Assembly (NCBI GenBank): GCA_002633005.1
Contig: NMRA01000302.1
Location: forward strand, 336,704 to 400,703
Length of the DNA: 64,000 nucleotides
From: Phoronis australis
Taxonomy: Eukaryota; Animalia; Phoronida
Direction of reading: 5' to 3'
Below are positions 7 through 50,240 of this stretch, piece by piece. The notes under the pieces were generated by a model, which saw only the letters and a list, made by a program, of their open reading frames with translations, made no database searches and was not told the origin of the DNA. A program made the position numbers and the translations under genes. Within the stretch, counting starts at the first letter, position 1. Each line of letters opens with the position of its first letter.

Positions 7-609
7 GTGAACCTTGTTTACCTGGTTGTACCTACGAGCAAATATCTTAGCTCTAAGCCCTACAAAGTATATGATTTTCTTAAAGGTAAATTAATTTCGT
101 AACAAAATTGATTATTATTATTTACTTGTGATTATTTTCGGTTATTGAAAGAAATTTTAAAACTATTCTTCTTCCAATCATATTGGTCTTATTTCAACAG
201 TCATGATACTAACAGCATTTTTGAGGGAAGTGTGTCTCAGATTTTTTAAATAGGTCCTAGTTTTTCGGAACGAAGCCTTCAAAAATCAAGAGTACGGCCA
301 ACTTGGCTCAATATTTCTTGCAAAATCGATAATTAAAAAATACGACCTATTTTATTATTCACCTGTTAACGGAATACTAATATGATTAGATGAACAATAT
401 TTTTAAAAACTCTGTTCAAAGTCAAAGAAAATCTTTTAACCAAAAACTAATTTTTGGTAAAATAATAAAGACAATGAATAAGAATAAAAATGTTGATAGG
501 AAATTTATTCACCATTCATGAAAAAATATTTTATAGAGGTTAGAGCAAAAGAATTTAAGATATTTGCTCATAAGTACAACATGGTAACTAAGGTTCACGG
601 TTATCTTAA
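7..609. mobile_element. MITE-like inverted-repeat element, left end near or beyond window edge, ending at TTAA
   Basis: 7-50 (gtgaaccttgtttacc...caaatatctta) is an imperfect reverse complement of 556-598. Homology to the paralogous region at about 40441 resumes right after ttaa at 606-609. Confidence 0.6.
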
Positions 610-1017
610 GCGAAATTAAATGTCAAATTGTCACTCTGCCGTAAATTGAATGATATGATAATATAGAACAAGGGCCTATTACTTTTGTGGATGTTCGTCC
701 TCTCGAGTAAGTCTGGATGCAACAACGCTAGCGAAAACGCCTGTAGTTTGGGGGTAACTGAAACCTCCGGATAAGCTCCAGCAGAAGTGACTCCTTTGAC
801 CGTTCACAATACTGGCGTTTTTGATGCTGGCGTCAGTGCCATGCAAAAAATCTAGCGCTTTATCCAGCGTACGATACGGGTAAAAAAGTAGCTTAGTGAG
901 ATGAGATAGGACTATTTTTAGAAAACAAATGTGTACAGGTCAACGCTGCAATTCCTCTGATGTCAACGATAACCCAGTGACTTTTTAAATTTTGCACGTG
1001 ACACATGGCAGTCTTAC

Positions 1018-1099
1018 CTCCAGTGGCCTGAGATATGAGAAGGCAGACGGCAATGTGTACCGGAAACACAACTGAAACAAGATGCGAAATAACGTGCAT
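1018..1099 (-). CDS. Signal-peptide exon 1 of paralog B of the Sushi-Ig-GPI gene (rest lies left of the window)
   Basis: [27 protein letters not shown]+G|gtaaga. Same 82-nt length and phase-1 donor as 40820-40901, 21/27 aa identical. Flanks 605-1130 are homologous to 40441-40930. Confidence 0.75.
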
Positions 1100-1384
1100 A
1101 AGTCTCGCCTGGACATTCCTTGGTCTTTGGTAACACCAACAATTTTAAACACTTTAATTTTTCTAAAGAAACATTACAGAATTTGAACACACTGACTGCT
1201 AGCTAACATTACATCCGGCATTGAGTCATCCGTAGATATCATAAAGTATTTGAAATCATCACGGTTGGTTTACTGATGCCGACGTGTGCCCCATGTTTCT
1301 TACATTGCCTTTCAGTGAACCAACAAATTGACTATAGCAACTCAGTAATTAAAATAACAGATCAGTTTTTGGCCACAATAAGAT

Positions 1385-3140
1385 TAAAAACCGGACTATC
1401 GCCGCACAAATAAAAAAGTTCATGTTCAATTCAACGTTTCGTTTTTTCATTAGACATCATCAGGATCATATTTACAACAATTTAGGACAACAAGTGCCAA
1501 CATACAGCTCAGGTAACATCCATAGAGTGAAGTGAGAGATACATAGAATATAGTCAGTAGCTGGTCATCACCATAGTTGCAGGGTCACTGAGCTCTGCAT
1601 GTTATTCAGAGAATCAGTGGCATGCTGGTTTTGAATGGCCAATGACTCTTTAATGTACAGTAACTCCTTATTATGTTCTCTGCAGATAATACTAACAGAG
1701 TTGGCTTAGTGATTGTAGCGAATACAATGCTTATACATGTATGTGTTACTTTTCTCTGAGGTGTGATGTTCTTTCAACCTGTCACAGAGGCGTCTTTGTG
1801 TGAGTCCTATATAGAATTCCTTACAGTTGTCACATTCAACCTCATACACAACCTTGTTTTTGTTCAATAAAGGGATGGGTGACTTGAGTTTAATCAGCAT
1901 ATTGGAAAGTTTCCGAAGAGGTTTGAAAACAACTATCAGTTCAACTGCTGGGTCTATGCAATGAATAAGGCGACATAACTGACGTTTCAATTTTATACTA
2001 CTTGGCCCGGTGTAACCAAGAGAAAAGAAAACTTTCTTTTTCTCGGTTCTAATAACAGCTACCTTATCTGCCTTATTCATTTTTGAAAGAAAGTGCCTTT
2101 TACAGCTATTCAGAAAATTCAGAGGATAACCATTGGCACGAAATAACTGGAAAATCGTAGCTACGTCACTATCAAAATTTAAATTGGTGGAGCAGATTCT
2201 CCAGGCACGGTGTAACAAGCAATTGACTAGACCTCTCTTGTACTGGATAGTCACAAAACTATCAATTTTAAGATAATGTCCAGAAAAACTGGGCTTACGA
2301 TACACAGATGTAACAACGGTGCTATTCTCACGTTCAACCAAGACATCTAGAAAAGGTAAACACGACTCAGATTCAATGGTGAAGTTGATGGACGGATGCA
2401 TATTGTTCATGTGATTAAAAAAGGTGTTGACTGCGCTCTTGGACGAAAACACAACAAACGTATCGTCAACATACCTACGATAAAATTGTGGTTTACAATA
2501 CGGTGGACAACTAGCCATAGCCTCAGTCTCGAGACTGTTTAACAGAACCATTTTCTGTTTGATGATAACTTTTATGATCAGATTGACGGAATAGCCATGG
2601 GTTCACTCCTGGGACCAGTGTTAGCTAATAGTTTCTTGTGCAATCTCGAGACTGAAGTCACCCATCCCTTTATTGAACAAGAGCAATGTTGTGTATAAGG
2701 TTGAATGTGACAACTGTAAGGAATTCTACATAGGACTCACACAGAGACGCCTCTGTGACAGGTTGAAAGAACATCACACCGCAGAGAAAATGCATTGTAT
2801 TAGCTACAGTCACCAAGCCAACTCTGTTAGTATTATCTGCAGAGAACTTAATAAGGAGTAACTGTACATTAAAGTGTCATTGGCCATTCAGAATCAGCAT
2901 GCCACTGATTCTCTGAATAACATATGCAGAGCTCAGTGACCCTGCAACTATGGTGATGACCAGCTACTGACTATATTCTATGTATCTCTCCCTTAATTCT
3001 ATGGATGTTACCTGAGCTGTATGTTGGCACTTGTTGTCCTAAATTGTTGTAAATATGATCCTGATGATGTCTAATGAAAAGACAAATAGTTGAATTGAAC
3101 ATGAACTTTTTTATTTGTGCAGCGATAGTCCGGTTTTTAA
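1385..3140 (-). mobile_element. Penelope-like retroelement, 5'-truncated, with inverted duplication of its 3' part
   Basis: ORF 1706-2551 carries RT motifs (YRRYVDDTF, LPFLDV, VYRKP) and a GIY-YIG endonuclease (VVYEVECDNCKEFYIGLT..R..EH). 1385-1885 is largely mirrored as an inverted copy at about 2655-3140. Confidence 0.9.
1706..2551 (-). pseudogene. Penelope-like RT C-terminus + GIY-YIG endonuclease fragment
   Basis: YVDD catalytic motif, thumb region YKRGLVNCLLHRAWRICS, GIY-YIG with CxxC. Confidence 0.88.
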
Positions 3141-3890: not shown

Positions 3891-4041
3891 CCTCCCGTTC
3901 AGTAACGCTACGACCTCGCTAAAAAGCAAGACTTCGCGAGAATACGTGAGATTTCGCCGTGTATTTTGCATAAGAACACGTGAATTTGACTAGGTTTTAG
4001 CTAGGTCCTAGCGTAGGTCCTAGCGTCTACTGAACGCACGC
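3891..4041. mobile_element. About 150-bp MITE (Harbinger-like, CAG target duplication)
   Basis: Ends cgttcagta...tactgaacg, cag on both sides. Near-identical copy at 23841-23991; related elements at 17878-18015 and 49780-49922. Confidence 0.65.
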
Positions 4042-7440: not shown

Positions 7441-8029
7441 GTGGGCGATAGCAGTGATGGGTGTAAGTGATATATAGACTTCAAAATTTCACATATTTGT
7501 GGTGTCGCCCGGGAGAAAATAACTACCCATTGCGACAATGAAGGTTGCATTAATCCCTCGCGCTTTTTACGGGCCAGCTAAAATGTTGTGATGGAATGGA
7601 GTGAATGTTGCTTGCTCGGCCTTCCCTTATTTTGCCATGAGTTGCGACGATCAGGCATATAAAGTTTGTTCCTATCTGATTCTTGAGAATTTTTGCAACG
7701 GGTTTCTAAACATGCACTTAACCTCCACAACCTACCTTCGATGTAATCCGCGAACATTGCACTGGGTTTTTTTTCAGAACGTACGCTGATCTTGATTTTA
7801 GCGTTCAATCAAAAAGTTGTAGGAAACGCAGTTTCTTTCCAGATGAACACGCGGTCATACAATCATGATCCGTCATTAGCAGAACAACAACAAAAACAAG
7901 CATATCCATTCTTATAGTCATTCACACCTCAGGAAAGAACATTGTCGTATCTCGTATAAAGTTAATTGCTACATGTACATGAAGTTACCGTGAAGAATAA
8001 AATTGTCCCTTTCCTCAGAGAAGCTGTCA

Positions 8030-8700
8030 TACACAAAATTTTCATCCGCAATTAATTTTCCAGCATGATAGTTCTCATGAGTATATGTAACAAACTTGAG
8101 AATATTAGTTATACTTTTGTGGCGCCTATATGTATTGTTTGGCTAGTAATAACAAATTGTTAAATACATTGTAGAGCAGCGTGTGTCTCATGAAGTTCAA
8201 GACCAACACATTTGTAAGGGAAACAGTCAGGAGGTTGAATGAGAAACTTTTAAAGTACTTTTCTCATTTTCCTTCCAAAAATGTTCTACAAGCGGACCTT
8301 CCCAAAAAAGGCGTGACACCGTATCTGGAGAAACCCCAATTTGGAGTTTGACTAAAAGGTTTTTGTCCCAATAGCACTGTGTAATATTCCAAATTGGAAC
8401 CTTTTTAAAGCAATGTTTTCTTTCAATCTAACTCTCTATTTCCCTTTTGCACACTGACTTGGAGGTTTCTTGATGTTGTTAAAAAGAGAACGAATATGTC
8501 TACACTTCACATCCTTCCGTAAGTGGATAATTGCTAAAGGCACGCTAGGAGAATTGCATCTAAATACCTAATCTTTTAATAACAGTTACTCTACCAAACG
8601 GCGTTAAATTTCGTCGACTCCAATTTTTTAATAAAGACTTGATCACCGCCACTTTTGCAGTGAAGCTCTTTTGCGTCATACTATCTGATTGAGTATCAAA
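8030..8700 (-). mobile_element. L1/Tx1 non-LTR retrotransposon fragment (post-RT and 3' end)
   Basis: IKSLLKNWSRRNLTPFGRVTVIK; 3' part homologous to 42860-43350. Confidence 0.7.
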
Positions 8701-9660: not shown

Positions 9661-9667
9661 CTCTGGT

Positions 9668-10717: not shown

Positions 10718-11790
10718 TGCTTTGTAACCCTCGACAGCCCTCAAAAGCTTTGGAAAACTGGGAAATTCTTTTTGAAGTGTGCAAAATGGATGACTGAACG
10801 ACAATTGATTGAAATCATCAACTCGGAGTTGAGTATCCTTTAAACACCAGTACAGTGAGGTTGTGTCTTAACGTCCTGTTTCCTTTTTCAATGATGGGAA
10901 CATAATCTTTAATGAGTTGCCTTTGTTTCCAGCGTGGTAGCAGTCATCAGTTGTATGTATCTGTGGTCATGATTTCACCTGTTCTTTTTGGGAGTTGGCG
11001 CAACTTAAAAAGAGCCATTTACAGGAAGCTTGTAGGACATCAAGTTGAAGTAGCCTTATAACACCCTTTTCATGGAATATGACCGTGCAAAACGCGCCTT
11101 CTGAGAAAATCAACCCGTCTATGTCATGTATGAACCCCCCCCCCCTCCCTTTCTAGGAACGGGTAAAGTCGTTCTTCTTCTAACTGCTTCTCCTGCAAAC
11201 AATAATACGATAAAACGGAAATGTTTAAATTGTTAGACACGATAGAAGACCACTCCCTCTCCTACTATTGAGTCACTAGACGAAGCACGCGCTGCTAGAG
11301 TGACTCCAAAAGAACATTCCGTGGGTACTCGCTTCCCTCCCCAACCACCAAACACTCCCTGAACCCTTCAACAGAACAGCTTCTTATCGGCATGGCAGCG
11401 AAATAGCGCGTGCACCTAAACTTTACAGTAAAAAAATTACCTAAAGTTTTTTTCTAACAACAACTTCGTTTAATCTTTAAAAGGTTTAAGTTGTGTACCG
11501 GTTATCTTGCTAAATCTTGTTAGTTTTGTTTCTTCAACATCAGTGTTTATCAAAGTGATTACTTTGAAATGAAGGAATCTCCCTCAAGGGGAGACGAGGA
11601 CACAGTTTCCCAGATAGGTAGTCTTCCACTACATTTTGGAGTGCGTGAAACGTTTGACTTGTTTGCAAATTTTACGTAATTCTGTATGAAGACATTCCCC
11701 AGAAGAAACTTTCACGTGAAACATCCACTTCAAAAGTTTTGCTGGATTAGTGTAGTGTCAAAAGAGGTCGGCTCAAGCAAATTGAGACTG

Positions 11791-11796
11791 TTTATT
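11791..11796 (-). promoter_or_regulatory. Candidate polyadenylation signal of gene A
   Basis: AATAAA on the minus strand about 125 nt downstream of the stop codon at 11920. Confidence 0.45.
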
Positions 11797-11919
11797 GTCT
11801 ATTTTGTGTTACACGTTTTGCTATGCACTTGTTGTTTACTTGGTTTTTTGTCAATGACCACAAAACTTTACTTGTATTCAGACTCGACTCGAAAGTTCGT
11901 GACTTCCCTGATATGTGCA

Positions 11920-12083
11920 TTAATGGAAAAATATCGTTGCGGCCAAAGTCAAAGCAAGCATTGCTGGTCTGGTCATCTTTGCCTTGGAGCCTACGTTCTC
12001 TATACTTGCGTCCATTTCTTGGAAGTCGGCGTAGTGTTCCGCTTCCTTTTCCGCGTCTACCACAAACTTTCCTTCGACTTTCT
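11920..12083 (-). CDS. Gene A exon 9: acidic stalk + GPI-anchor signal
   Basis: ttttcag|AG AAA...: [54 protein letters not shown]. Small residues, polar spacer, hydrophobic end, no cytoplasmic tail. Confidence 0.8.
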
Positions 12084-15000
12084 CTGAAAACATTTGAACA
12101 AGACTTGTGTTTCAAAAAATGGTGAAAATGAATGTTGCACTTGTAGATGAGCACTAAATGTCCTTTGTTACGTAATAGTCAAGTTAGTGCGAACCATGTT
12201 TGTGCTAAAAACGCCAGGGGCCCGTTCCAAGAGACTGACTTAAGTTCATTTTTGACTTAAGTCTAAGATTTGGCTCAACTTCCAAACTTTGAAACTTCTC
12301 CACCCACTAAGATAGTCAAAATTAAGAGAAAACTAAAGTTAAAAAATTAAGTCAAACTTATGATCTCTTTCTTGAAACAGATTTGAGATAATTTGAAGTT
12401 TTGTTTTGAAATTGACGGAAATTTAAGATTTGTCTTAGCTAAATCATTTTTCTTGGAACAGGCCCCAGCTCTTGATTTGTACAGCTTCTCGTTGTAAAGG
12501 TAGTCCAAGTCAGGCCGCTAATCATATTGAGTTCTGAGCTCTGTCGGGAAGCAATAACGGTTCCCTTTTTGGTTTTGGCCATTGGTCGACCGTCGACTGC
12601 AGTATTGCCACTACATCAGGAACACGAGGCTATATCCGAAATAATGGCTTTTTCGCGGCCTCTTTTTACCCAAGTGCTTAGCATGTATTATTGGTGCGTC
12701 TGCCTACGTTTCGCATATAAGTCCAGGTGATGTCCCTTCTACAGGTCCATACATTAATTCGCATATAGGCGCAGACGTTTTCTATTTAATAAATTGACTT
12801 GCTTTTCATGAACAACTTTGGCTCATGGACTTATATCCGAAATGATGACCACCTAGTTTTGCCCAAGTAGTTCAGATATTGGCGCGTGCGCCAAAGTTCG
12901 CATATTAGCACAGTTCCGCACAGACCCCCATGGACCTGATGACGCGGCAATACAATAAACCGATTCGCTGAGCCAAGTTGATGTCAATTCAGCTACGTCT
13001 TGAGCTTAGCCCAGGGCGTGATAGCGCGACGAACTCTGATCTGAAAGCTCGTGCGTGCACTACCTGGCAAATGCAGTTGTTCTGTTGAGCAGTACAACTA
13101 ACGTCCATTGCGACAACCCACTCAATTAAATTATGACACATTTGGGTGGTTCAATTTTCAATATGTGAACGTAAGTACATGTAGGACATCCGGCGTCACT
13201 GTTTGATTGAAGTACAACTTGAAATATCCAAAACAAAAACTGAAAACACGATTTTTGTTCAAAATTCCAATGGCAAAATGTAAATTGTACATTGAAAATG
13301 TGTGACTTGCTCAAAATCCCGTTTTGTGGGGATGCACATACAATTACTTAAAGATACGTTTGCCTAAGTTATAGCTGAATAAAATGCGTCAAATCCCGGT
13401 CTTATGTTGCAACAAAACAACTTACCACCGAGCTTGAAATTGTTTGAGGTCACTGTATTCGATACGAATCCCATGGTGTCATCTGGTACCGTCACTTTGC
13501 AACTGTTACAAATGGAAGATAGCTTTAACGACAGTCTATTCTATTGGTATCACAAAGTATGGTACAAAGTTAGTAGGGAACCAGGGGTAGGGAAAGAAAT
13601 ATGTGTTTGAATTGATTCCAAATAATGAGATTTATGGCACTTTGACATAAATTCTATTGTTTGGGAAAATAACATTCTACAGCCGTTCATGCTTCATGTC
13701 CATAATCCTAGTTACATGTAGTTCCTACCAAGTCCGATGGTAACGCTGTGTGTTCTTTCTCTTCAGCTTCCTGTTGGCCCAGCCAAAAGCAACAGTACGT
13801 TCACTTGTAAGTTATCCTAATTTGATACCTAGTAGACTCCTTCCTGTTCGGCGTTAATTGTCCTGGACAAAAGTTACTTCACGCATTTATTACTTTTAGC
13901 CACAGATGGCTTTTCTAACGGCCGATTTCTTTGGATTCTAATGCCCCTCAAACCCAAACCAATCCCCTCAGTCCCCAATAACGCTTCCTCACTTGGCCCT
14001 GGTTCCAAACAACCACTCCCCTGGGTATAAGTGGGATATCATGCGTCTGGTTTTGGAGGAGACCCAGCGGCGAGGTAGAAAGGTTATCAATGGGTCGGAT
14101 AGGCAAGGGACCTGCCATGCTGCCAAGGTTGAGTTTGTCCCACGCCTGTTGGGATGGGTGAGTTGCCGATATCAAATTTCTTGTTGTGGTGTAGCTTTTC
14201 GTGTCCGTGTATTGTAACCTAAAGCTATTTTAAGCCTTAACAAGGAGTGAAGCATAGTTAGGGTCCGGGTACCCATGTAGAATGCGTTAGTGTCAGCGGT
14301 TGACAAGTGTGTGACCCAGGCTCCAGAGGTACTGGTGGCCCGGGTTCGAAACAGGCCTCGGTTTCCCGCCAAAGTGTTATCTCACTAGTGAGATAACTTT
14401 ATGGGTTATTACACACTTGTATCTGCCATTCGAGGCTAATATTGTGGCATAAAATAAAGAAACAATAAAAATATACAAAACAATAAAAACTAACCTGTGA
14501 AATGAAAAAACTGATAATGATAAATCAAAAATTAGCAAAACGTACATTGTATTTAAACGACATTTGACACGATTCGTGGCGATTGGTACCACATGACAGG
14601 ATTGTTCATCCATGAACAGCCCTGCCCACCACGTTCCTTACAATGTCTCTTTTTATCTCTCTGGCTGGTCTGCTCACTCAGCTTGTCCAGAACTTGCTTT
14701 GAAGTTTGTTATAGCCCAGTTGGCTGTTTGGTGTACCCACTTGGTACTTTATATATTTGCACATTTGGCATTTTGTACCCACTTGGTACTTGTTATTGAA
14801 TTTGCCGTTTTGCTCGACCCACTTGGCAGGCAATCGGCCAATACCCATTTTGGATTGTGTACCCATTTGGTACTATGCTAACCTGTGCCACTTAGTATCC
14901 CATACTCAATTACACATTGGGTATCGGAAATGTGTGTGTTATCTCTTGTAATTAAGAAACCCATCTGGTTCCTTCTGTGAAATATTCAATTGTAAAGCTG

Positions 15001-18000
15001 TGACCCTGAAATTCCAAATACAATCTAAAATATATGTTATTCTTGTTGTTTTATTTGTCCCCAATAAAGTACCACTAATGCAGTGCGGCCATATCCAAGA
15101 GCAACTAAATGATTTCACTGGCAGTAAAAGGAACAACATCAGAGGCAGTGAACAACACTTTCAGTGATTTAACACGAGGATCAAACACAAACATTTACAC
15201 CAGAGTCGCGTAATAGTAAAAGTCAGTTAAGGATAACTCTAACCACAAAACATTTTCCGTTTTTACAATATTTTAAATATGTCCAGCAAAATACTTTTTC
15301 ATCTTCATTCTCGGGGAACTTCAAATACGAAATATATACATGTACCTTGTACAGAGAAACAATATTCTGCAGATTTTAAAAAACGCTGTGAGGATTTTCA
15401 ATATGAAGGCCTAGTTTTTGGGTAATGTAACAAAGACGTATACGACTGCTATTTTACAGCAATATCTTACGTTTTGCGAGTTGATTTGTCATAGAAACCA
15501 ATTTAAAAGACCAATCAAGAAACTGGTGAAACTTTTGTTTGAAAGAGATTTCATAAAACTCCACCGACTGGTCATTTTGCTATGAATGTTCCCCACTAAA
15601 AAAGAAATTGTGACTCAAATAAGATGTTGATGTAATAGCAATAAGATTATAAATACTTTGACTAGTTGACGATGCCTGTTATTCTGATGAGCAAGTTAGA
15701 ATGGAGGCCACTAAATAAGGTTTTATATAATCTTACAAAGAAATTTACAAGGTCCCCATCAATCTAAACAACAATATTCTCTAAATTGTTGTTTATATTT
15801 ATTATTATAAATGCCGTATTCTTAACATTAACCGAATTTCCCCTCGCTATGCGCAGTTACTTACATATTTAAGTGCCGCGGTGTTGTAACGCCATGTTGT
15901 AACCGAAAATACAAACACCCCCATTTTTGTTTGTTATACATCTGTGACGTAGTGTAGAAAAAGAATAAATATAGCATCAGATGAGCATAGAAGTATGGAT
16001 GAAGAGTAGTTTGAACGGTACAGGGATGATTAAGCGGACTATTCGTATGATTCCGACCGTTCAAATATCGAGGAGGAGACGAGAGACTCAATAAGAACGA
16101 TTACTGTTCACAGACAGCTGTTCTTCCTCGACCCCCGGCCCTTTCAGCCCCAGCTGGTTTGTCGAGTGGGGCGGACCTACTTAGGCAGAGGGTACGCAAG
16201 AGTTACGACAGGACGTTAGTGACTGATAAGAATATTGTTTAGCAGGTGGAGTAGGTTTAAAAAAATATTTTGGTGTTTAATATATAGGCGGCCCTTCAGT
16301 GACAACACTGCTATTCATAAGGGTTCGCCCGATCGGTATTGTCTGTTTTGATTAGTGGTAAGTGGGTGCCGATAGGGTTCAGGTTGGAAGTACAGGCCTC
16401 ACGACTTGTGACCAAAAAGTCGTAATGTTCTAAAACCACTCGACCCCACACCCAACAATCCCCTGAATCCACGAACCCTTTTACCGGCCCACTACCCCCA
16501 CAACCCCCCTTGACCCACGACCTGCGGCCACTTCCTACACGCAGATCAGCTCTGGCTCTAGTCTGGTGGTTCAAAACAGAGAGTGACGAAAGAGCATGAT
16601 CTGATACAGCGGACTATGAGCGTGCTATCGTTGTCATGGAAATAATCCACGAGCGCCTACAAATGGCTCCGCTCTACTAAATTTAGGGAGAGAGTACATT
16701 ATCCTGAATGCACATATGTTTATATTTCCAGGTGAATTATTTCTAAGTGTCCGACGAAATTTTAATCTTTTGAATGGTTCATTGTTTTACCTTGCATATA
16801 TACTGAATTTTTTATAATTTTAATATGGAATAAAACTTAACTAGTTATTTCACATCACAGATAACCGGCGCGGGTACACTTGGCATATATATAACCTCAT
16901 ATACATATAACAACAATCCAAAGCGCATGGCAACAAGATATGGCCGCGATGCAAATATGGGATAAATAGGTTATCCTACAAACATAGCAATACTGCTGCG
17001 ACATAACAGTATCTCGAACTCATTTCATCTTGTAATGTCCTAACAAGATCGAATATGAAATGAATTTTGGAGTAGTATGTACGTGGAATAAGCTATGCAT
17101 CATGGCGAATGTTCTCGAAGCACAGTTTCCTCAAAGGTACCTTAACTTGTCTTTCGATGTAAACTTGCTCATAACTAATAAATCAGCTTTCCCTGTAATT
17201 CGTCCAGTGCTCGGGTCATAGGATAGCCTCGTTGTTAGCTGAAATTTCCGGGATTGCGTGGGTCCCACTTTAGTGAATGTGATCATGACCATCCGTAAAG
17301 CTGGAAAATATAAGACATTTGTTGGTGCAATACAAATCAGAAGGTTACTTTTTGGTAGCCGCGTTGACATCGGTGAAAGCTTACAAAAGTCTTTTAAGCA
17401 TAAATTACGTATTCCTAAAGCAGTCGTTGTTTGGATACGTTAGAAAGACGACTCATAAGTATTGCCATTTCAACAGTAGTTGGGAGATACGCAGTAGGAA
17501 GACAAAGTTTAAAGTTTGCCATATCGTAAGCTTTTAACTCCATGAAACTGGATATAACAGAAGACAAAGTTCAAGTCATTGTTGCTTGACCTTTCTCATG
17601 ACCAGATTGATCAGTCACTGCTCGGTACTCCGACACATTGCAGTGTTTGTTGAAAAGCAGATTAAACCATCACTTATATTTGGCGTGGACACAGATTTGC
17701 TACTGAGACAAGTACGAGACAAATTACTTTGTTATTTAGATTGTTACGAGTGATGAAGGGTGTTCAGAGAAAATGATATGAGTTAAATTCGTCACGGTTT
17801 TGAAGCACATTGATTGCATTAAATTTATTTATTTTCCACCTGATTTGTGGTTAAAATATTTGTACTCTCTCAACAGGATAGCGTTCAATAACGCTGATAC
17901 CGCACAAAAAAGCAAGTTCTCGCGAGATTCCGCGAGATATTGCCCTGTATTTTAAATGAGACTATTTGTTTTTGTCTAAATTTTTCTCGACGCGAGACAG

Positions 18001-32658: not shown

Positions 32659-32704
<46 letters not shown>

Positions 32705-35700
32705 AGTGAGAGTGTGTGTGCGCGCAAGTGAGAGTGTGTGTGAGTGTATTTTGAGAGCCTATGACAAGTCTCCATTTTCTTACCTGCACTGAAGTCAGCC
32801 TGGCCTTTCATAAAATGGACTCTACAGACGATCGTCAATTTTTCACCGTTCTTTTTACTGTTCCAGCCACTTGACGATAACTTCGAAATGCGGGGTAACC
32901 CTGAAATAAGTGCTCGTCCCCTGGATCAAATCTCTATAGGCCAACCGAATAGTATGCGTTTGATTAAGCACACCGCAACAAGAATGGTACCATAAACATG
33001 CCGAAGATTCATCAGAGTTTATGACCCATGGGAACCAAAAAAATCACTTTCAAGTTATACATAGCACAAACCAAAGCAAACTTTATTGTTGTTGTTTTTA
33101 TTTTGTATTTGATATATTTTTTTGAAAAACTATTGCTATGTCTACGCTCGAGCTAGGCAAACAGTTATCAAACAAGACGAGTGAATATCAAACAATTATG
33201 CTTTGAATTCAAGGCAAGAAACACAATAGAACCGGTTTCTACATAACTTTTGTGTTATCATGTCCTTGTTGTTTTCTTTCATTAGTAATCTCACAAGTTT
33301 ATAATAAGTAACTTAAAACCTCTAATAAATTACATTTGCTAAGTATTACTAAAAATATGCCACATGAAATGCTGAAAATTATACTGACATAAATCTTCAT
33401 TAAGAAAGCACCACTGGATTTTTGAAGAACAGCACGAGATTGCAGCTATACTGACACCAACAAGGATGTTTTTGAAAACAACATTCCCTTTCATGTTGAG
33501 GTCACGTTTACACTGAACTCAAAAATAATGTGATTTGTGTTTTCCAGCCTCACATACGTATATCTGAGGATGAGGGCATTGTACACAAGTTGATGTGCCC
33601 ATGCTCACTGGGTGATGGTGGGTATAACCAGCGGAGCTGTGATAGTCATGATGCTGTGCCTGTGGCAGATGCTGAGAATAGTCCATTACAGTGAAAAGGG
33701 GCCCGTTCCAAAAACCTAACTTAGCGAAGACAAATCTTAAATCTTAGTAAATTTGAAAATAAAAGTTAAATTTGCGCCAGTTATTAGTTTATTATTGTTG
33801 TGGCATATACATGTACGTTTGTGCGACCCCTGTCGAGTTGTCTACTTCTTCCGCTTTTGTGTCACGAGCTTGCGTTTAAATACAGTTACATATTTGGCTG
33901 CACTTTGGTGTTTGTTTGTCTACTGGCGTTGTCTAAAAACCCTTTCAAGAAACAGATCTTAAGTTTGAGTTAAGTGTTTGACATAAGTTTTCTATTGATT
34001 TTAACTAACTTACTAAACGTGGAAGTTTCAAAGTCTGGAAGTTTTAAGACAAATCTTAAACTTAAGTCAAAAATGAACTTAAGTCAGCGTCTAGGAACAG
34101 GCCACAGGTCTATAAAAAGCGACCTGTCACCTGTATTTTGCTCATGCCTGTGAGTATTTCGTATAAAGACAGTTTTGGAAATTCAGTTAAGCACACTCAC
34201 TATGCATTCATGTGACTCTGTGAAAGAAAACACTGCTGACATGACGTTTGGAATGACCTTTATCATGTTCCTTCCAAAGCCCTGTCTACCCCCCGCAAAA
34301 TCCCAGATCCCCATGTGTGCAGTCTGCGTCAGAACGTTATTTCACTTCGTAATGCTGCTTAGTGTTGTTAATGCGCCCTTGATTTGTAACAGTGAGCATT
34401 CTGTACAAATGTCTAAAACTGAATTGTGACAAACCGAGTCATTTTTCTTGTGTGTCAGTTGAACAGAATTATAAAAAAGCGAATTTGCATGGGCTGAGAG
34501 TGTGCTATTTGGGAATATTGACAGGGCTGTTGATATATTTATTCATGTTTAGCACTGTATGTAGTCCTTATTATCCATTTAGCTAAATAATCAACTGTTT
34601 TGGCCCTGCGCAAAATATGGTCTACATCTTGTCCTCGCGAAGTAATTCAAAAGTTGTTGCAACCAGAGAATCAACTGACCGAAATAAGATACGCTTAGGG
34701 CCTTACACGAAACAGGGTCCGCTTCGTCGCTTTAGGTGCATCTCGAAAGTGGTGGTGACCGCTGAGGGAGAGCGGCAGTACGATAATTGTGACGACGGAA
34801 ATTAAGTGTTGGCGCCACAGGGGTGTCTTTCATGAAAATTGACTTAAGACAGAGATTTGGTCTTGCAATCCACTCACTTTAGAAAATAAATATAAATTAT
34901 CTGAAAATATACTCATAAATCTTTCTTATTGATAAAATTTGTACAAATTATTTCCAGGCTATTGTGTATTGATGGTTACAGGACTAAACCTTGCAACTGT
35001 GAAGTGAAAACATTATTACGGCTTCACTGTATGCCTCTGACATGAATGTTCATTAAAGGCTGTATTATTGGCAGGTTCATAATAAGGTACGGGTTTTGGC
35101 AAACTAAACAAAGCACAATAAAACAAATTCATTATTTGACAGTTTTGTATAATGTTTGTCTGAAAATTAAGTATAAATACTGAAACAGCCATGACAATGT
35201 ATTGCCAACAGCACATTCTATCAAGTCTTCAGCTGTTGAAGTACACTAGGCAATGAAAGGTGTTTTTCTCGTATATATTGCAGTGAAGAAAATTTTATTT
35301 TATTTCATTTTTTTTTTGATTCATCACTTTTGGTTTCTTTATCATAAATGAGGAATTCGCAAGAGTCTACTGTTGTTATATGCTGGCCTTATACAAATAT
35401 ACTGACCACAACAACGGGCGTCTACCCCAACATATTTCCGCAATACAAGGGTTTGGTCACATATTGTGCCGCTTTATCTACTTTGCTTGGAGTCAAGAGT
35501 CAAGCAAATGATATTTTACTCAGACTCAGTACTTAACGTGTCTAATGCATGTATTCGTTTTTCCTGCTACTTAGTACTCGGATAAATGTGATTTCTTTAT
35601 GGTACTAATAAACAGAATTTATGCCCGATATCATTTCCTAGTTTCATAATGAAAATCGTATGAGGACTTAAATGCAATGCAACCGAATTATTAAAGCTGC

Positions 35701-38700: not shown

Positions 38701-40901
38701 TCCCAATTGGGACTCCTCCGACTGAGATCAGTTACCCATTGAATACTCTAAGGGTGTATAGAAGTCACTGAATATTTTAAAAATTGCACACTTACTTGCC
38801 CATCGAAAGCCTTGCAAATCTTCACGAGCTCTAACATACAATCTTGCCCTCATTGTTTCCCACCTCATTACATTCTGTAGTTCAGACGAGAGGGGTGCTG
38901 AACGTGCGATAACATCTGGCTCTTTTGTTAACTGCCCAACTCAGTCTTTTGTTCCGTATGATAAGAAGCAGGCAAATTATCTCCCAGGCTTCAAAGGAAA
39001 CGTATGGTGGTTGCACGCTATTGCCGAACGCGTATTCAGAACACAGTCAAACCAAGTGCGTTGGTAATCCGTTTGGACGGAATAGATTTCTTAAATTCTC
39101 TTGTAGTTGGGCGATTTTGGTGGTTCAAAAACTTAACATGATCAGCATTTGACGAGGAATTCAGAAATGCTATTGGTTTAAGCGCAAATATGTTATAACT
39201 TAACTTTCGTTTTTATCAGCCCAGCCCAGTCAGGCTAGATATGATCTGATTGGGGATTAGAGCAATTATCGAACAAAAGAGCGCAGGCCCTCCAACCATA
39301 AGTGACAGACTGGAGTTAATCAGTCGTGTAAGATATTGGCTAGGGGGGTAAACTTCCCAACTTGTTGGGCTATAGAATCGAACAAGTTGGGAGCAACGGG
39401 ATGTCGACGTCATGTTTCGAACAAGTCGCTTAGGTACACGGTTTGTTGGTAATGCCACTTTTTGTACTGACTAACTCGTCTTTTTTCCGAATCTCGTTGA
39501 GCAGGACGACCGCGTTTCGCCCTCGGCCGTACACTACCAGTCTCCACCATTTGTATTTTTGTTAACTTCTGTGGCTGTGCATCCGTTGTTGTGTACTATC
39601 ATTTTATTTTAATGATTATCCTTTTTATTCCTTGTAAATATCTCATTCGTTCGCAGTATTAAAAGCGATTTCTTCGTTTTTTTGCTCGTGTTCAAAGTTA
39701 ATTCTAACCTTTTGAACTTTAAGTCATACCAAAAAAACGGCTAAAACGGCGTTAAGGGGTATTTTGTCTATAACTCGGACAATAGGCCTTTAAAATCAAG
39801 CAATGTTTGATGAACCCGAAGGACAATCCGGCTTGTCTCTACCCAAAAGGGAACCTCTATTCTGTCTGTAGATAGTCATCCAATGACTTATCAGTGCTGA
39901 GCAAACGAATTAAAGTGAGCAAACCCTTTTCTAGTTGAAAAACATTTAAACTAATTTCCAAAACTACTGCATGGTAATCGAACGACCTGACGTCATCGTA
40001 CATTTGCACTTGTGTTTCTCGTTGTCAAATTTGTCCCACTTGTTGTTGCCCATGCACGTCGCTTCGATGGCATTATCTTTGCTCTCGTCGTCACCGTTGA
40101 ATTTCAGGCCAAATATACAATCGTGCGTGATCTTCACACCCTTCGCGACCTGTCCCGTGCGAGATGGTTTGTAGCCAAAATATTTGTCGATTTGGCACAT
40201 CTCTGCAATCGAATTGCGTTCTAAAAATGACTTAATTCTACTGCCCATAATCGTCTGAGACCCGTTAGGCTACCACGTCACTATTTCAGAGTTATAATAA
40301 AGCCCAATTATTGAAATGTTAAGGTTCACACCAGTGGCGAAAACTCTAGCGTTTTACAGTAAATAGCCAAACAAGATAGTTCTCCGCGGAGGGGTAAGTT
40401 TCGCAAACGGTAAATTTATTTCCATACCACTCGAGTCTCTCTTAAGGCGAAATTTGATGTCAAATTGGTACGTTCGCTCTCTGCCTTCAACTTTGAATGA
40501 CGTGACTATAGAACAAATGCCTCTTACCCCTGCGCAAGTGTGTCCTTTGAAGTAAGCTGTCTGGATGCAACAGCGATGGCGAAAACGCCTGTAGTTTAGG
40601 GGTAACTCAAATCTCCAGCAGAAGCGATTCTTATCATCGTTCACGTTACTGGCGTTTTTATGTTATCTGCAGTACTATGCAAAATTTTTAGCCAGCGTTT
40701 TAGCCAGCATTTGAACCGATTAACAAATAGCTTGCTGAAATGAGATGAATTGTTCAATGCTGCACTTCCTGATAACGATAGCCCTGTGACACACTGTACG
40801 TGACACACTGTATTCTTACCTCCCCTGGCCAGAGAAATGAGGCTGCAGATGGCAATGTGTAACGGAAACACAACTGAAACAAGATGTGAAACAACGTGCA
40901 T
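11920..40901 (-). CDS. Gene A: predicted GPI-anchored protein, signal peptide + Sushi/CCP + 2 Ig-like domains, 421 aa, 9 coding exons
   Basis: Exons 40820-40901, 40002-40202, 32784-32900, 28785-28968, 19942-20111, 18117-18227, 17141-17300, 13426-13502, 11920-12083. All introns GT-AG with matching phases (1,1,1,2,1,1,2,1); total 1266 nt with no internal stop. Confidence 0.8.
12218..12465. mobile_element. Harbinger-type MITE
   Basis: TIR gggcc(c/t)gttccaaga, 3-bp CAG target duplication; related inverted copy at 33698-34104. Confidence 0.75.
13426..13502 (-). CDS. Gene A exon 8 (end of Ig-like domain 2)
   Basis: gtaacag|T TGC...GGT G|gtaagt; (S)[25 protein letters not shown]. Confidence 0.8.
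14280..14455 (+). repeat. 3' end of the palindrome/tRNA-like repeat family
   Basis: gttatctcactagtgagataac palindrome at 14376-14397, preceded by a ggttcga B-box; matches 46500-46637 and 48743-48906. Confidence 0.7.
14565..14940. repeat. Element with internal short tandem units (tgtacccacttgg)
   Basis: Several degenerate copies of acccacttgg/acccatttgg between 14710 and 14900. Confidence 0.5.
17141..17300 (-). CDS. Gene A exon 7 (middle of Ig-like domain 2)
   Basis: tattttccag|CT...TTA AG|gtacct; (A)[52 protein letters not shown]. Confidence 0.75.
18117..18227 (-). CDS. Gene A exon 6 (start of Ig-like domain 2)
   Basis: acattgcag|TG...GAA G|gtattt; (L)[36 protein letters not shown]. Confidence 0.8.
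19942..20111 (-). CDS. Gene A exon 5 (end of Ig-like domain 1 + Pro-rich linker)
   Basis: tttttccatttag|A TGT...TTT T|gtgagt; (R)[56 protein letters not shown]. Confidence 0.8.
20930..22434. mobile_element. PIF/Harbinger DNA transposon derivative with nested small insertions
   Basis: TIR ca(a/g)ccgatttcataa, 3-bp CTA target duplication, subterminal ttaaacctgg repeats, and a decayed Myb-like ORF end (KKNGDGP) on the minus strand near 21930. Confidence 0.7.
22440..22720 (-). mobile_element. Gypsy-like pol C-terminal fragment
   Basis: [12 protein letters not shown]...TPR and YVLPDGK...RIHLR resemble the post-integrase tail. Confidence 0.45.
23841..23991. mobile_element. About 150-bp MITE, copy of 3891-4041
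   Basis: Near-identical sequence with cag flanks. Confidence 0.65.
25230..27510 (+). mobile_element. L1/Tx1 retrotransposon, degenerate RT and 3' region
   Basis: [54 protein letters not shown]...[10 protein letters not shown]; many frameshifts. Confidence 0.88.
27630..28360 (+). mobile_element. Non-LTR retrotransposon 3' end (RTE-X-like)
   Basis: [40 protein letters not shown] zinc-knuckle tail. Confidence 0.7.
28785..28968 (-). CDS. Gene A exon 4 (middle of Ig-like domain 1)
   Basis: atttttgcag|TT...TAT AG|gtacgg; (V)[60 protein letters not shown]. Confidence 0.78.
29686..31898. repeat. Two tandem units of about 1.14 kb (possibly Helentron-associated/DINE-like) with GAY-rich microsatellite
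   Basis: atgaaagcgct...cttggcgaaattaac at about 29686 and 30822; units are colinear throughout; the second ends at the N at 31899. Confidence 0.75.
32340..32750. repeat. GA-rich tract and (GT)n microsatellite
   Basis: Purine-rich run 32340-32460, (GT)n 32630-32745. Confidence 0.9.
32784..32900 (-). CDS. Gene A exon 3 (start of Ig-like domain 1)
   Basis: cttatttcag|GG...GCA G|gtaaga; (W)[38 protein letters not shown]. Confidence 0.8.
33698..34104. mobile_element. Harbinger-type MITE related to 12218-12465, opposite orientation, with extra internal sequence
   Basis: ggggcccgttcc...ggaacaggcc ends; internal cttaagtcaaaaatgaacttaagtcag is the reverse complement of the 12.2-kb copy. Confidence 0.7.
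35020..36931 (-). pseudogene. Three phase-compatible exon-like segments of an unidentified gene inside intron 2 of gene A
   Basis: 36898-36931, 35792-35882 and 35020-35103 splice to [69 protein letters not shown]. Confidence 0.35.
40002..40202 (-). CDS. Gene A exon 2: Sushi/CCP domain
   Basis: gattgcag|AG...AAA T|gtacga, symmetric phase 1-1; pattern C..G..I...C..G.....C.....W........C (4 Cys + Trp). Confidence 0.82.
40820..40901 (-). CDS. Gene A exon 1: signal peptide
   Basis: [27 protein letters not shown]+G|gtaaga; A-x-G cleavage-type motif at the exon end. Confidence 0.82.
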
Positions 40902-41569
40902 AAGTCTCGCGTTAACATTCTGTGATCTTTAGTTTTAGCTATTTTTAAACAGAAGTTTAGTGTCCAAGCTTTATGTTTTAATAGTGAGTGACATCAATGG
41001 TGATCGACGAACAGATAAACTCAAGCGCCTGGGAATTATGCATGTATCCCGTCTTGTCGTTAGCTCTGCAGGTTTATATGTCATGCCCAGATGTTACAAT
41101 TTTTTCGTCGCAAAAACCTTGCAGAATGTCGCTTTCGGGAGATATTGTAGCCAACCATATGGAAAGAATAACGTAAAGGTAGCCATGTTGTTATCTATGT
41201 TTCGCATTGACTTTCTACGATCAGGCAAATGAAGCTTGCTTCTATCTGATTCTCACGACTTTTTAGTAACGGATTTCTAAACGTGCGCTAAAAGTCCATT
41301 ACCTACTTTTGATGTAATCCGCGAACATTGCACTGGTATTTTTCAAAATGCACGCTGGTCTTGGTTTTAGCGTACAATCGAAATCATGCACGAAACTTTA
41401 TTTTCGAGATTGACACGTGCTCATGCAATCACGATCCGTCACTTGCAGTTTCTGTATAAATTATTAGCATAAGTAAACAAGTACAAAATACACAAACAAG
41501 CACATCCATTCATACACGCATGCACACGTCAGGAATGGTAATTCTCGTATCTCGAGAAACTGTCAAATA

Positions 41570-42850: not shown

Positions 42851-42854
42851 TAAG

Positions 42855-46637: not shown

Positions 46638-46724
46638 TAACCCATATAGTTATCAAGTTATTCTGCCACGTTCTTCAGGTGTGTTTCTTTTTCAAGCTGT
46701 CTGGCCCAGCATCTTAAATATAAA

Positions 46725-47824: not shown

Positions 47825-48038
47825 GTCTATAGGAAGTGCACCAAAGGGCGGGATGGGGGCCTTAACGTCATTTGGTATCATACTTTGCCGCCTTTTGTAA
47901 CAAAGAAGTGTGTCGTCCGTTTCAAAAACAGCACGCTCGTGACACGGCGCAGGTGACGTAATGGCAAAAAGCAAGTAAGCTTAATTGGCATATGTATGAC
48001 GTCATGTAACAACAAGCCAAAGCGCCGTGATGCATATA

Positions 48039-48906
48039 GATTATTACATGGCGAAGTCGTTATCCCCCGTTATCTAGAGCCCGAGTGGATTTTGGAGAAT
48101 TATCGCCCGAGGGGCGTTAGCCCCGAGGGTGATAATTCTCCAAAATCCACGAGGGCTCTAGATAAGGGGGATAACGTCTGAGAACATGTAATAATCTATT
48201 TATACCACAATTAAACGAGAAACATTGCAATGAATCGATTTACCTTTTCTGACTCTCCACGGCTTTGTAACTACTTTCTATGTCAGAGACCCTGGGTCGG
48301 AGGTCGTGACCTTTTAAGAAAAGCCGTGCTATTTTTGTCAAATAATGCTTTTACTCAAAACCAATTGAAAACTTAAATATAATAGAAATAAACTGAATTA
48401 ATAAATTAAGGTTTACCAACTATTATAGCTTAAAACACGTTTTTTTCACGCTAAGCTTCGACCGGGAAATTATCGTCTGCTAAAGTTGGTTACCACTGGT
48501 AACTGAATATAATTCTCAAGTCAAAAATCCTGACGACACGATACCCGCATTCAAACTGGAGATCGGTGATTTACGAGTAAGAGGACATGAGAGAAAAATT
48601 TCACTGAATTAAGATATCATTTTTATGGAAATTTTGTGTCTTATTTTTCGTAGCGTATAAGTACAGTACAATGCGATTTGTTGAACGTGCGATTATTGCG
48701 CGTGCTCATTTAAGTATTCTATTTTCACTCTTGATGACGTCAGCCGCTGCGTGGTGTAGTGGTTAAGGTCGGCGACCAGCAAACTAATGGTACCGGGTTC
48801 GACTCCGTCCTCGGTTTCCCGCCAAATCGTTATCTCACTAGTGAGATAACTTTATGGGTTATTACACGGTTGTATCTGCCATTTGACGCTAATATTGTAG
48901 TATAAA
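48039..48906 (+). mobile_element. Non-autonomous hairpin/palindrome element copy 2
   Basis: About 158-bp imperfect inverted repeat 48039-48196; tRNA-like A/B boxes 48752-48806; 22-bp palindrome 48829-48850. Confidence 0.8.
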
Positions 48907-48909
48907 AAT

Positions 48910-50240
48910 ACATATATATATGGGATAAATAAGTTATACGAATACTGCTACAACGATCCTAGTATCTCGAATTCATTTAATCTGGAAATGTCCTAACGAG
49001 ACCGAAGATAAATGAATTCTCGATAGGATATGGAAGTAGTATGTACGTGAGGTAACCTACACATCATGGCCAATGTTTTCGAAGCGCAGTTTCCTCAAAG
49101 GTACCTTAACTTGTCTTTCGACGTAAACTTGCTCATAATCAACAAATCCGCATTCTCCGAAGTTTCCGAGAGTGCGAGTGGGCTCCACTTTGGAAAATGT
49201 GACCATGGCCATCCGTGTTGAGTAGCTGGAAAATATGCCATTAGTTGGTTCAACTTTTTGGTTTCAGTAACAGCCACGTTGACCCCCGTGAAAGCTTACA
49301 AATTCTTTTAATCATAAATTGTGCATGCGGAAAACGGTCGTTGTGTGGATACGTTAGAGAGACGGCTCATAAGTATGGCCACTTCACCAGCAGTGTGAAG
49401 ATACGAAGTGGGAAGGAAAAGTTTAAAGTTTGCCGATATCGTAAGCTTTTAACTTCGTAAAAATGGCGATAACAAAAGACAAATTTCAAGACATTGTTAA
49501 TCGACCTTTCTCATTGCCAGGCGGAGCAGTCATTGCTCGCTACTCCGACACAAGGCATCCCAGAGTTTGTTGAAAAGCAGACATAACTATGGCTTATGTT
49601 CGTTGTGGACACAGATTTGCTACTGTAGCAAGTATGAGTCAAATGACTTTGTCATTTTTACTGTTATGAGTGACGAAGGATGCTCATCAGTTAACTTTGA
49701 AGTACCTTGATTCTATTAAAATTCAATCATTTCCTTCAGAACTTTGGATAAACTATTTGCACTCTGTTGTCAAGTCACCGGTATAGCATTCAATAACGCT
49801 GATACCTCGCAAGAAAAGCACGTTCTCACGAAACTCCAGTAGATATCGCCATGTATTTTCAATGAGACCACGTGATTTTGGCTAGAGTTTTCTCGACGCC
49901 AGACAATTATTGAACTTTATCCAGATTGTGAGAATAAATGGTTTACCGCAATTCTCCTCCCTGGGATGCGCACGCATCAGTTTTCGTGTATTCGTGAAAA
50001 GGTCAACGGTATTGTTCAGTATGGCGAAGAGTACCTTCCTCTACCGTGATATGTCATCAACATCACAGCTAAAAGCTCTTACTTGAACTTAATTGTCGAG
50101 CTTCAAGACAGACAATTAAAATTTGACGAAAATCCGGACTTATTGATAAGTGACAATTTCTGATATGGCGTGTCAGGCAACTTCACCTTAAATTCGCCCA
50201 ACTTCGCCCTTGTGGTAGTTTTAAATGGTACAAAACGTAC
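48910..50240 (-). pseudogene. Remnant C: decayed copy of the gene A exon 6-7 region
   Basis: 48910-50045 aligns to 16950-18125 and 50055-50240 to 19170-19370. The exon 7 copy (49105-49225) has indels; exon 6 is nearly all deleted. Confidence 0.8.

Follow-up and report, generated by a model that had tools for sequence, protein, structure and literature searches.

Recognition genes of invertebrates are usually clusters of divergent Ig-type genes which are missed by profile searches. Such genes are described as not conserved across phyla (PMC12582321). The FcoR/Fester genes of Botryllus form a clustered multigene family with Ig and Sushi domains in one ectodomain, FcoR showing a Sushi followed by two Ig domains, and their Ig domains can span three exons (PMC12582321). 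The Alr genes of Hydractinia constitute a tandem IgSF cluster of expressed genes and pseudogenes, with unusual Ig domains that lack the core Trp and escape profile searches (PMC9546547). Allorecognition loci such as Alr1/2 and fester are recognised by tens to hundreds of divergent alleles. Members of the Dpr/DIP/IgLON family (Wirins) have two or three Ig domains, are held by a GPI anchor and lack a tail; they were expanded by duplication and act in adhesion with paralog-specific binding (PMC10084454). Finally, Drosophila Hikaru genki (Hig) joins CCP to Ig domains (PMC9083331) and CD55/DAF is a GPI-anchored protein (PMC5054108). The locus described here lies in a window of 64,000 nucleotides, i.e. 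the whole stretch of DNA analysed, and is compared below with these systems.

Gene models and layout of the cluster

RNA evidence was taken from three raw-read runs (X5, X6 and X7) chosen by species label. According to these reads, gene 1 consists of 10 exons on the minus strand (41.39-11.78 kb) with a product of 404 aa; all nine introns are GT-AG and leave a single open frame of 404 aa. Eight of the nine introns are read joints, with 192-701 reads per run in X5 and X6 and 0 in X7, and the ninth (exon 5/6) is given by matching loose read ends from both sides. Several of the true exons were missed by ab initio exon scans. The features are as follows, read counts being given as X5/X6 or X5/X6/X7.

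41307..41389, minus strand: gene 1 exon 1, 5' UTR and first 7 codons, ATG at 41328; RNA 5' ends cluster at 41383-41389, and 361/325/0 reads join it to 40873
40820..40873, minus strand: gene 1 exon 2, 54 nt, encoding the signal peptide's hydrophobic core (hydropathy); joints 41307>40873 and 40820>40202, the latter with 268/235 reads
40002..40202, minus strand: gene 1 exon 3, 201 nt, phase 1-1, Sushi/CCP domain; read joints
32784..32900, minus strand: gene 1 exon 4, opening third of Ig-like unit 1, with Cys 118; joints with 701/570 and 283/192 reads
28785..28923, minus strand: gene 1 exon 5, central part of Ig-like unit 1; joined to exon 4 by reads, with the start of exon 6 matched by the loose ends of 384/316 reads
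19942..20111, minus strand: gene 1 exon 6, closing part of Ig-like unit 1, with Cys 179 and an additional Cys 198, followed by a Pro-rich linker; the loose ends of 369/291 reads lead back to exon 5, and 366/270 reads join it to exon 7
18117..18227, minus strand: gene 1 exon 7, opening third of Ig-like unit 2, with Cys 260; read joints
17141..17300, minus strand: gene 1 exon 8, central part of Ig-like unit 2; joints with 380/310 and 326/280 reads
13426..13502, minus strand: gene 1 exon 9, closing part of Ig-like unit 2, with Cys 326; joints with 326/280 and 354/311 reads
11782..12083, minus strand: gene 1 exon 10, with an acidic stalk, a predicted GPI signal, the stop at 11922 and a 3' UTR containing AATAAA; RNA 3' ends pile up at 11782
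7736..7801, minus strand: gene 2 exon 1, with its ATG at 7757 and homology to gene 1 exon 1 (blastn 81%); RNA 5' ends fall at 7797-7819, and 331/249/0 reads join it to 1071
1018..1071, minus strand: gene 2 exon 2, 54 nt, with 9 differences from gene 1 exon 2
604..1017, minus strand: start of gene 2 intron 2, homologous to gene 1 intron 2 (p=0.20)
8097..8554, no strand assigned: sequence upstream of gene 2 with homology to 42842-43358, which lies upstream of gene 1 (blastn 65%; nhmmer)
48918..50247, minus strand: decayed fragment of a third copy, ~1.3 kb, with a piece of intron 6, intron 7, an exon 8 homolog and the start of intron 8
51682..63656, plus strand: 5' part of GAK (cyclin-G-associated kinase), head-to-head neighbour 1.4 kb from the decayed fragment

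An earlier note on this DNA had paired an 82-nt signal-peptide exon at 1018-1099 with a copy at 40820-40901. The likeness itself stands, both being on the minus strand with 11 of 82 nt different and donors beginning GTAAGA, and a match of this kind is expected by chance within the window at ~1e-20. The true exon is, however, of 54 nt (40873-40820 and 1071-1018): RNA reads splice out 41306-40874 (361 in X5, 325 in X6) and 7735-1072 (331 and 249), so that the first 28 nt of the supposed exon, ATG included, are intron acceptor tract. The start codons placed at 1099 and 40901 are thereby intronic and the second paralog starts at ~7.8 kb, with 33,571 bp between the ATGs of the two genes (41328 and 7757) instead of ~40 kb; 39,802 bp is the distance between their second exons. 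Likewise, the announced 421-aa protein has to be replaced by the read-supported product of 404 aa, the ATG of the earlier note giving 406. Its count of six changing and two silent codons is obtained when reading from the ATGs at 1099 and 40901, but two of the 11 differences, one in a "changing" and one in a "silent" codon, are intronic. The 6:2 ratio was consequently rejected as a sign of selection, the count being drawn partly from intron.

The flanks are homologous as claimed (604-1131 versus 40440-40933, 70.5% over 546 columns), and the likeness between 8097-8554 and 42842-43358 implies that the duplicated unit reached ~2 kb above the gene 1 start. A Sushi-type exon was also expected downstream of the 1018 exon, and reads do join gene 2 exon 2 to such an exon left of the window (loose ends in 437 and 369 reads of X5 and X6, agreement 1.0). 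Since only 76 nt of gene 2 coding sequence are inside the window, its full architecture is out of view. Genes 1 and 2 are a real tandem array of expressed paralogs.

The internal copy reported at 48.9-50.2 kb is real as well, but of the exons it retains only exon 8 and the final ~10 nt of exon 7, together with stretches of intron. It matches gene 1 at 72% (16955-18124 versus 48918-50042) and 73% (19170-19369 versus 50058-50247), and a deletion of ~1 kb removes exon 7 except for its last ~10 nt. The exon 8 homolog (49225-49105, 121 nt) carries indels of +5, +2 and -46 nt, its splice sites being intact and its first part frame-shifted. No homologs of exons 1-6, 9 and 10 were found in 41.4-51.7 kb. 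A 330-bp match collinear with the fragment (29298-29631 versus 50891-51226) was left out of it because a dispersed repeat overlaps.

The neighbour was identified as GAK by a PDB match to GAK (E=4e-33) and 15 collinear HSPs with nemertean GAK. Its summed scores are 993 with nemertean, 976 with bivalve, 961 with annelid, 960 with amphioxus, 912 with gastropod and 877-914 with four vertebrate sequences, a thin margin in a comparison set without cnidarian, echinoderm or lophophorate, so that the host can be placed as spiralian-like only tentatively. With two expressed, spliced paralogs and a decayed fragment on the same strand, the birth-and-death cluster beside GAK proposed earlier is supported.

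Predicted architecture of the gene 1 protein

The gene 1 product is predicted to comprise a signal peptide, a Sushi domain, two Ig-like units and a GPI-type tail, with no cytoplasmic part. Sushi domains have a Trp before the last Cys and are encoded by a phase 1-1 exon. Exon 3, a phase 1-1 exon of 201 nt, encodes 66 aa with Cys 28/54/75/91 and Trp 81, and fits the CCP module of ~60 residues with four Cys (PMC9083331). In the ESM Atlas, the top score of exon 3 was 0.96 and 22 of 30 hits fell within Sushi-bearing clusters; all of the 10 best family-bearing hits belong to one clan, PF00084 being present on 15% of the top cluster and Sushi_2 on 81% at rank 9.

Pfam returned 0 families for exon 3, and likewise for the other exons scanned singly (exons 4-8 and exon 10) and for four exon-containing frames. 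The single-sequence model of exon 3 (pLDDT 43.6) was unusable and Foldseek gave nothing at E<=0.001, while the PDB sequence search with exons 3, 4 and 5 gave 0 hits at E<=10. A word-indexed homolog search among longer proteins, in itself weak evidence, retained 0 of 2 candidates for exon 3 and 0 of 6 for exon 8. Phmmer of exon 3 against 1.84 billion representatives yielded 4 hits, each to a tandem-repeat protein; two of these are CBM_14 peritrophin-like and the other two unrelated, and all were rejected as summed weak matches. No close relative of gene 1 was found in these sequence searches.

Exons 4-6 and 7-9 likely encode two Ig-like units, as read from motifs only. The Cys pair of Ig strands B and F is spaced by 55-75 residues. 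The pairs 118/179 and 260/326 are 61 and 66 apart, and both units are spread over three exons with identical phases (1-1-2-1). Exon 7 showed a weak match to CD276 Ig domains (best E=0.72; two weak rows in the PDB search). The core C-strand Trp is absent from both units, Trp occurring only at positions 81, 93 and 105, and some Ig domains are described without it (PMC9546547). No similarity between the two units was detected by blastp.

At its C-terminus, gene 1 has a hydrophobic tail of 14 residues (mean hydropathy 2.25 over 13 residues) with no residues after it. By hand rules, a GPI-type signal can be read there, with polar stretch, small residues, spacer and hydrophobic tail, candidate omega sites at 375, 380 and 383, and a signal at the N-terminus; this layout matches the one described in PMC5054108. 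From this hand reading, the product is likely GPI-anchored and, with nothing after the tail, would not signal alone. The "surface receptor" of the earlier note is therefore only partly supported. The mature chain has a pI of 9.3 and no N-glycosylation sequon.

Expression and divergence of the paralogs

Gene 1 is expressed at ~250 RPKM in X5 and X6, with no junction reads in X7, and gene 2 reaches a similar level in the same runs (depth 494/408 on exon 2 in X5/X6). Over 24 nt at the Sushi start, a third transcript type (87/80 reads in X5/X6, hand comparison) shows 3 differences from gene 2, all amino-acid changing. At 90% likeness, extra reads raise the depth to 859/688 on exon 3 and 732/562 on exon 4, exon 5 being without them (436/320). 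One paralog read set (235 reads in X5, hand comparison) agrees with exon 7 at >=94% and then, across the exon 7/8 junction, shows 10 differences in 30 nt (4 of 10 codons); this patch is a biased sample, having been picked from loose ends for its divergence. The divergence between paralogs looks patchy, not even.

The earlier idea of a fast-evolving recognition family is not borne out by the true 25 signal-peptide codons of genes 1 and 2, in which dN/dS is 1.08 (11 differences, p=0.73) and dN (0.17) is not above the intron divergence of 0.17-0.27. Introns are ~20% diverged in both copy pairs, which suggests copies of similar age. Reads of at least 99% likeness number 3118 in X5, 2625 in X6 and 94 in X7, and no variant falls in gene 1 exons among the 40 rows listed for each of two stretches (209 and 2191 further rows). 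Consequently, the gene 1 allele of a second study looks near-identical to the assembly, in a comparison of two samples in which the RNA animals may be kin of the sequenced animal.

Candidate functions and comparison with known systems

The locus is likely a lineage-restricted birth-and-death cluster of adhesion/recognition proteins. With somewhat better than even confidence, the two expressed genes and the decayed fragment are taken as a tandem cluster whose complete member is likely a GPI-anchored Sushi-Ig-Ig ligand for adhesion or recognition, used in particular tissues or stages. Such a cluster would have arisen by local duplication of a unit including the promoter, most of one copy then being lost. 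The protein would be attached to the cell surface by GPI, and the Pro-rich linker would hold the membrane-distal Sushi and the first Ig unit outward for binding in trans; signalling, if any, would pass through a separate co-receptor, and local patches of change would give the paralogs different binding preferences.

The expression of both genes in X5 and X6 at this level would also be expected of an abundant coat, mucus, matrix or gamete-surface protein, duplicated for dosage and with largely interchangeable paralogs. The ~250 RPKM, basic pI and missing sequons suit an abundant coat or matrix protein equally, and no signalling tail is present. Sushi and Ig-like domains combined with an intact anchor-type tail, as in gene 1, rather suggest membrane-bound binding, and the divergence looks patchy rather than even; duplication for dosage is a clearly less probable alternative to the adhesion/recognition ligand.

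Less probable still is that the locus belongs to a polymorphic cluster of self/non-self or immune receptors like Botryllus FcoR or Hydractinia Alr, in which gene 1 would be a GPI-anchored decoy or ligand. A Sushi followed by two Ig domains corresponds to the proximal part of FcoR (PMC12582321), and tandem genes with pseudogenes and Ig domains without core Trp recall Alr (PMC9546547); there are also at least three transcript types, and changes cluster where a loop of Ig unit 2 is predicted. On the other side, gene 1 is without transmembrane helix or cytoplasmic tail, the allele of a second study, from animals that may be kin of the sequenced one, looks near-identical to the assembly, and only two genes and one fragment are seen in the window. 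Equally improbable is a bolder proposal, namely a lineage-specific, many-membered Sushi-Ig-Ig recognition family of a spiralian-like animal which would have reached the Botryllus co-receptor domain kit independently, its GPI-anchored paralogs with varied Ig loops serving as a code for self/non-self or gamete compatibility.

Uncollapsed haplotypes or an assembly artefact are scarcely credible and largely refuted already: contig depth is a rough measure and there is one N at 31899, but this sole N lies inside gene 1 intron 4 and is bridged by reads, intron and promoter divergence is 15-23%, intron 1 differs in size by 6.2 kb, and the ~20% intron divergence together with single-copy DNA contigs of similar depth over both genes (36-52; 36.6-51.9 for the gene 1 5' half, 35.8-50.6 for the 3' half of gene 1 together with gene 2, from the 8 longest contigs in each case) indicates that the copies are not haplotigs.

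In its lack of a detected close relative or single-exon Pfam hit, its tandem copies, its dead fragment and its sample-restricted expression, the locus resembles recognition clusters. If polymorphic or paralog-specific in binding, it would be a candidate recognition system, none having been found for this animal group in the literature searched; if not, an abundant surface protein would simply have undergone a small duplication of an ordinary kind. Under either reading, the corrected gene model is useful for follow-up.

Compared with the known systems, CD55/DAF is built of Sushi domains and is not known to have an Ig, and Hig has five CCP and one Ig. Unlike gene 1, in which the Sushi directly follows the signal peptide and a GPI-type tail closes the chain, FcoR carries an Ig domain at its N-terminus, a transmembrane helix and an ITIM/hemITAM tail, and its high polymorphism was not seen at gene 1 in two samples. 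Alr has single-exon Ig domains, ECS, transmembrane helix and cytoplasmic tail (PMC9546547), whereas gene 1 has three exons per Ig-like unit and no tail. The Wirins are conserved across bilaterians and no Sushi is described for them, in contrast to gene 1 with its N-terminal Sushi and no homolog found for exons 3 and 8; with the exons tried, no PDB hit to IgLON/DIP structures was obtained. The Dpr/DIP/IgLON family is nevertheless the best model for the way in which gene 1 may work.

Transcribed structure of the two paralogs

Mapping used a single DNA run (X1) and the raw reads of three RNA runs (X5 with 12.8, X6 with 11.3 and X7 with 11.0 million records, in each case 18-19% of the run), all under the same species label. 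Likeness was set at 90% over 21400-41399, the 5' half of gene 1, and at 94% over 600-20599, which holds its 3' half and gene 2. Gene 1 was defined by stranded read joints, those listed being the best supported (beside 392 and 133 further joints).

Exons of gene 1 (from RNA joints) and the neighbouring gene
41389-41307, minus strand, gene 1 exon 1
40873-40820, minus strand, gene 1 exon 2
40202-40002, minus strand, gene 1 exon 3
32900-32784, minus strand, gene 1 exon 4
28923-28785, minus strand, gene 1 exon 5
20111-19942, minus strand, gene 1 exon 6
18227-18117, minus strand, gene 1 exon 7
17300-17141, minus strand, gene 1 exon 8
13502-13426, minus strand, gene 1 exon 9
12083-11782, minus strand, gene 1 exon 10
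from 51682, plus strand, GAK, neighbour of the gene cluster

Eight of these joints are backed in both X5 and X6 by 192-701 reads per run, and by 0 in X7; the exon 5-6 joint, which spans both mappings, is supported by matching loose ends from either side. All introns are GT-AG, a 404-aa open frame runs from the ATG at 41328, and the exon depth of 400-500 corresponds roughly to 250 RPKM. Since only the best-supported joints were listed, gene 1 may also have less frequent isoforms, one with a transmembrane tail for instance. At its extreme 5' end (41387, minus strand) the leader of gene 1 carries an out-of-frame ATG that opens a frame of 6 codons and is missing from gene 2.

The earlier note had placed the start codons at 40901 and 1099, in paired 82-nt signal-peptide exons. 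The paired stretches are indeed present in the sequence comparison, with 11 differences and, read from those ATGs, 6 changing and 2 silent codons; the computed chance expectation for a pair this similar is about 1e-20. According to the RNA joints, the ATG at 40901 falls 28 nt within intron 1 of gene 1, in the pyrimidine tract, and that at 1099 is likewise intronic in gene 2; the signal peptide of gene 1 is divided between exons 1 and 2. The end of gene 1 lies 4.0 kb above the start of gene 2, which is actually near 7800 (ATG 7757); intron 1 of gene 2 measures 6664 nt versus 433 nt in gene 1, with splicing seen in 331 (X5), 249 (X6) and 0 (X7) reads. The expected Sushi-type exon downstream of 1018 was found, 437/369 reads (X5/X6) running from there into an exon beyond the window, whose first 30 nt show 5 differences (3 silent and 2 conservative, by hand) from the gene 1 Sushi exon. 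A third transcript type (87/80 reads), differing from gene 2 in 3/24 nt at the Sushi exon start, all residue-changing, comes either from a further paralog or from a divergent allele.

Several repeats were observed. Intron 1 of gene 2 holds a 298-codon Penelope-like retroelement frame (1709-2602, minus strand; GIY-YIG E=0.0064, below cut-off), the 3' part of which recurs inverted at 2651-3140 (91%). A fragment just upstream of gene 1 (41.7-42.7 kb, minus strand) is presumably Penelope-type by its motifs; it matched 0 Pfam families and gave no blastn similarity to the element in gene 2. A LINE remnant with pieces of RVT_1 (E=0.0065) and of zf-RVT (E=6e-7) lies in gene 1 intron 5 (25858-27305, plus strand). 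Two tandem 1.1-kb copies of a high-copy repeat, 80% alike (29684-31898), end at the single N of the window (31899), possibly a scaffold joint in intron 4, spanned by spliced reads. Plus-strand RNA reads at 14600-15270 (depth about 100 in X5/X6, many fixed differences) are transcripts of a related repeat elsewhere and not local. Short tandem arrays (40-bp x2 and 53-bp x3, 95-97% alike) occupy a GAK intron at 63666-64000.

Origin and age of the copies

Window self-comparison shows homology of 604-1131 to 40440-40933, of 5733-5905, 7630-7954 and 8097-8554 to parts of 40994-43358, and of 16955-19369 to 48918-50247. The last stretch is the decayed third copy, which is real and lies upstream as claimed but amounts only to a remnant of 1.3 kb, which has lost part of intron 6 and most of exon 7. 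Three indels shift the frame of the first part of the exon 8 homolog while splice sites and net frame are kept, and no homolog of other gene 1 exons was found in 41.4-51.7 kb. The exon 8 indels (49105-49225, minus strand) sum to -39 nt and leave an open frame with correct entry and exit phases, probably by chance. Another stretch, at 50891-51226 and roughly 450 bp away from the start codon of GAK, matches gene 1 intron 4 (29298-29631) over 330 bp and may be a repeat or an outer remnant of the third copy.

Intron divergence is 0.16-0.18 between gene 1 and the fragment and 0.15-0.23 between gene 1 and gene 2; both duplications would thus be of similar age, with divergence far above allelic levels. 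Uncollapsed haplotypes are further argued against by the similar depth of the eight longest single-copy contigs (36.6-51.9 in the first mapping, 35.8-50.6 in the second; rough figures; X1 possibly comes from the very sample that was assembled), and the copies being an artefact is extremely improbable.

Predicted protein build

In gene 1, residues 1-25 are hydrophobic, and residues 26-92, with four Cys and one Trp on a single phase 1-1 exon, grouped with Sushi clusters (ESM Atlas, score 0.96; 22/30 matches), with PF00084 present in just 15% of the top cluster; Pfam and PDB searches with this exon gave no match. Cys pairs 118/179 and 260/326 mark two units, each on three exons with identical phases, joined by a Pro-rich linker. 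The F-strand motif of the first resembles the usual D-x-G-x-Y-x-C, and the start of the second weakly matches CD276 Ig domains (E=0.72). Because the usual core Trp is absent from both and searches were by single exon, these units are graded only as likely Ig-like. Homolog searches with exons 3 and 8, short and therefore weak queries, found no close relative. The C-terminus (acidic stalk, small residues 375-385, short basic spacer, 14 hydrophobic residues and one residue after) matches the GPI signal layout described in PMC5054108 and is predicted to be too short for a membrane span plus tail. The mature chain has a pI of 9.3 and no N-glycosylation sequon.

Rate of evolution, proposed role and known systems

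The earlier note had likened the cluster to fast-evolving recognition families. Over the 25 true codons, gene 1 and gene 2 differ by 7 changing and 1 silent (dN 0.166, dS 0.154; ratio 1.08, binomial p=0.73), which is uninformative; signal peptides tolerate change. At 90% likeness, X5/X6 depth is 859/688 on exon 3, 732/562 on exon 4 and 436/320 on exon 5, paralog reads raising the first two and adding none to exon 5. A further read set (235 reads, X5) matches exon 7 down to 18131, where it passes into an exon 7-8 junction that has diverged; at least one expressed paralog therefore also carries the second Ig-like unit. At this junction 10/30 nt differ beside a stretch at least 94% alike, a position that would correspond to the B-C loop of that unit. 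Paralog divergence thus looks patchy, which counts for fast evolution, as a lead, the loose ends having been selected for divergence. Against it counts the near-identity of most second-study gene-1 reads, though the animals may be kin: reads at least 99% alike to the assembly number 3118 (X5) and 2625 (X6) versus 94 in the non-expressing X7. Among the 40 rows listed per mapping (209 and 2191 further rows), no variant lay in gene-1 exons. A polymorphic allorecognition or immune cluster is considered improbable.

The reading somewhat favoured is that of GPI-anchored adhesion or recognition ligands: local duplication would copy the gene together with its promoter, the paralogs would be co-expressed in certain tissues or stages, and their products would bind in trans, as in Dpr/DIP/IgLON, while being incapable of signalling alone. 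A dosage-amplified coat or matrix protein is a less probable, though still serious, alternative. The cluster is small in view, with selection and function only candidate, yet it is real, expressed, lineage-restricted and testable.

For comparison, the sources used cover Botryllus fester co-receptors (FcoR; signal, Ig, Sushi, Ig, Ig, transmembrane, tail; PMC12582321), the Hydractinia Alr family (PMC9546547), Wirins (PMC10084454), and CCP and Drosophila Hig (PMC9083331). On the features tested and as described there, gene 1 does not qualify as FcoR, as Alr or as Wirin, and no Sushi-Ig-GPI family of this build was found described in the literature search, most subscription papers lying outside it. 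Tandem clusters of Ig-type surface genes are known; what is new, relative to the literature searched, is the architecture.
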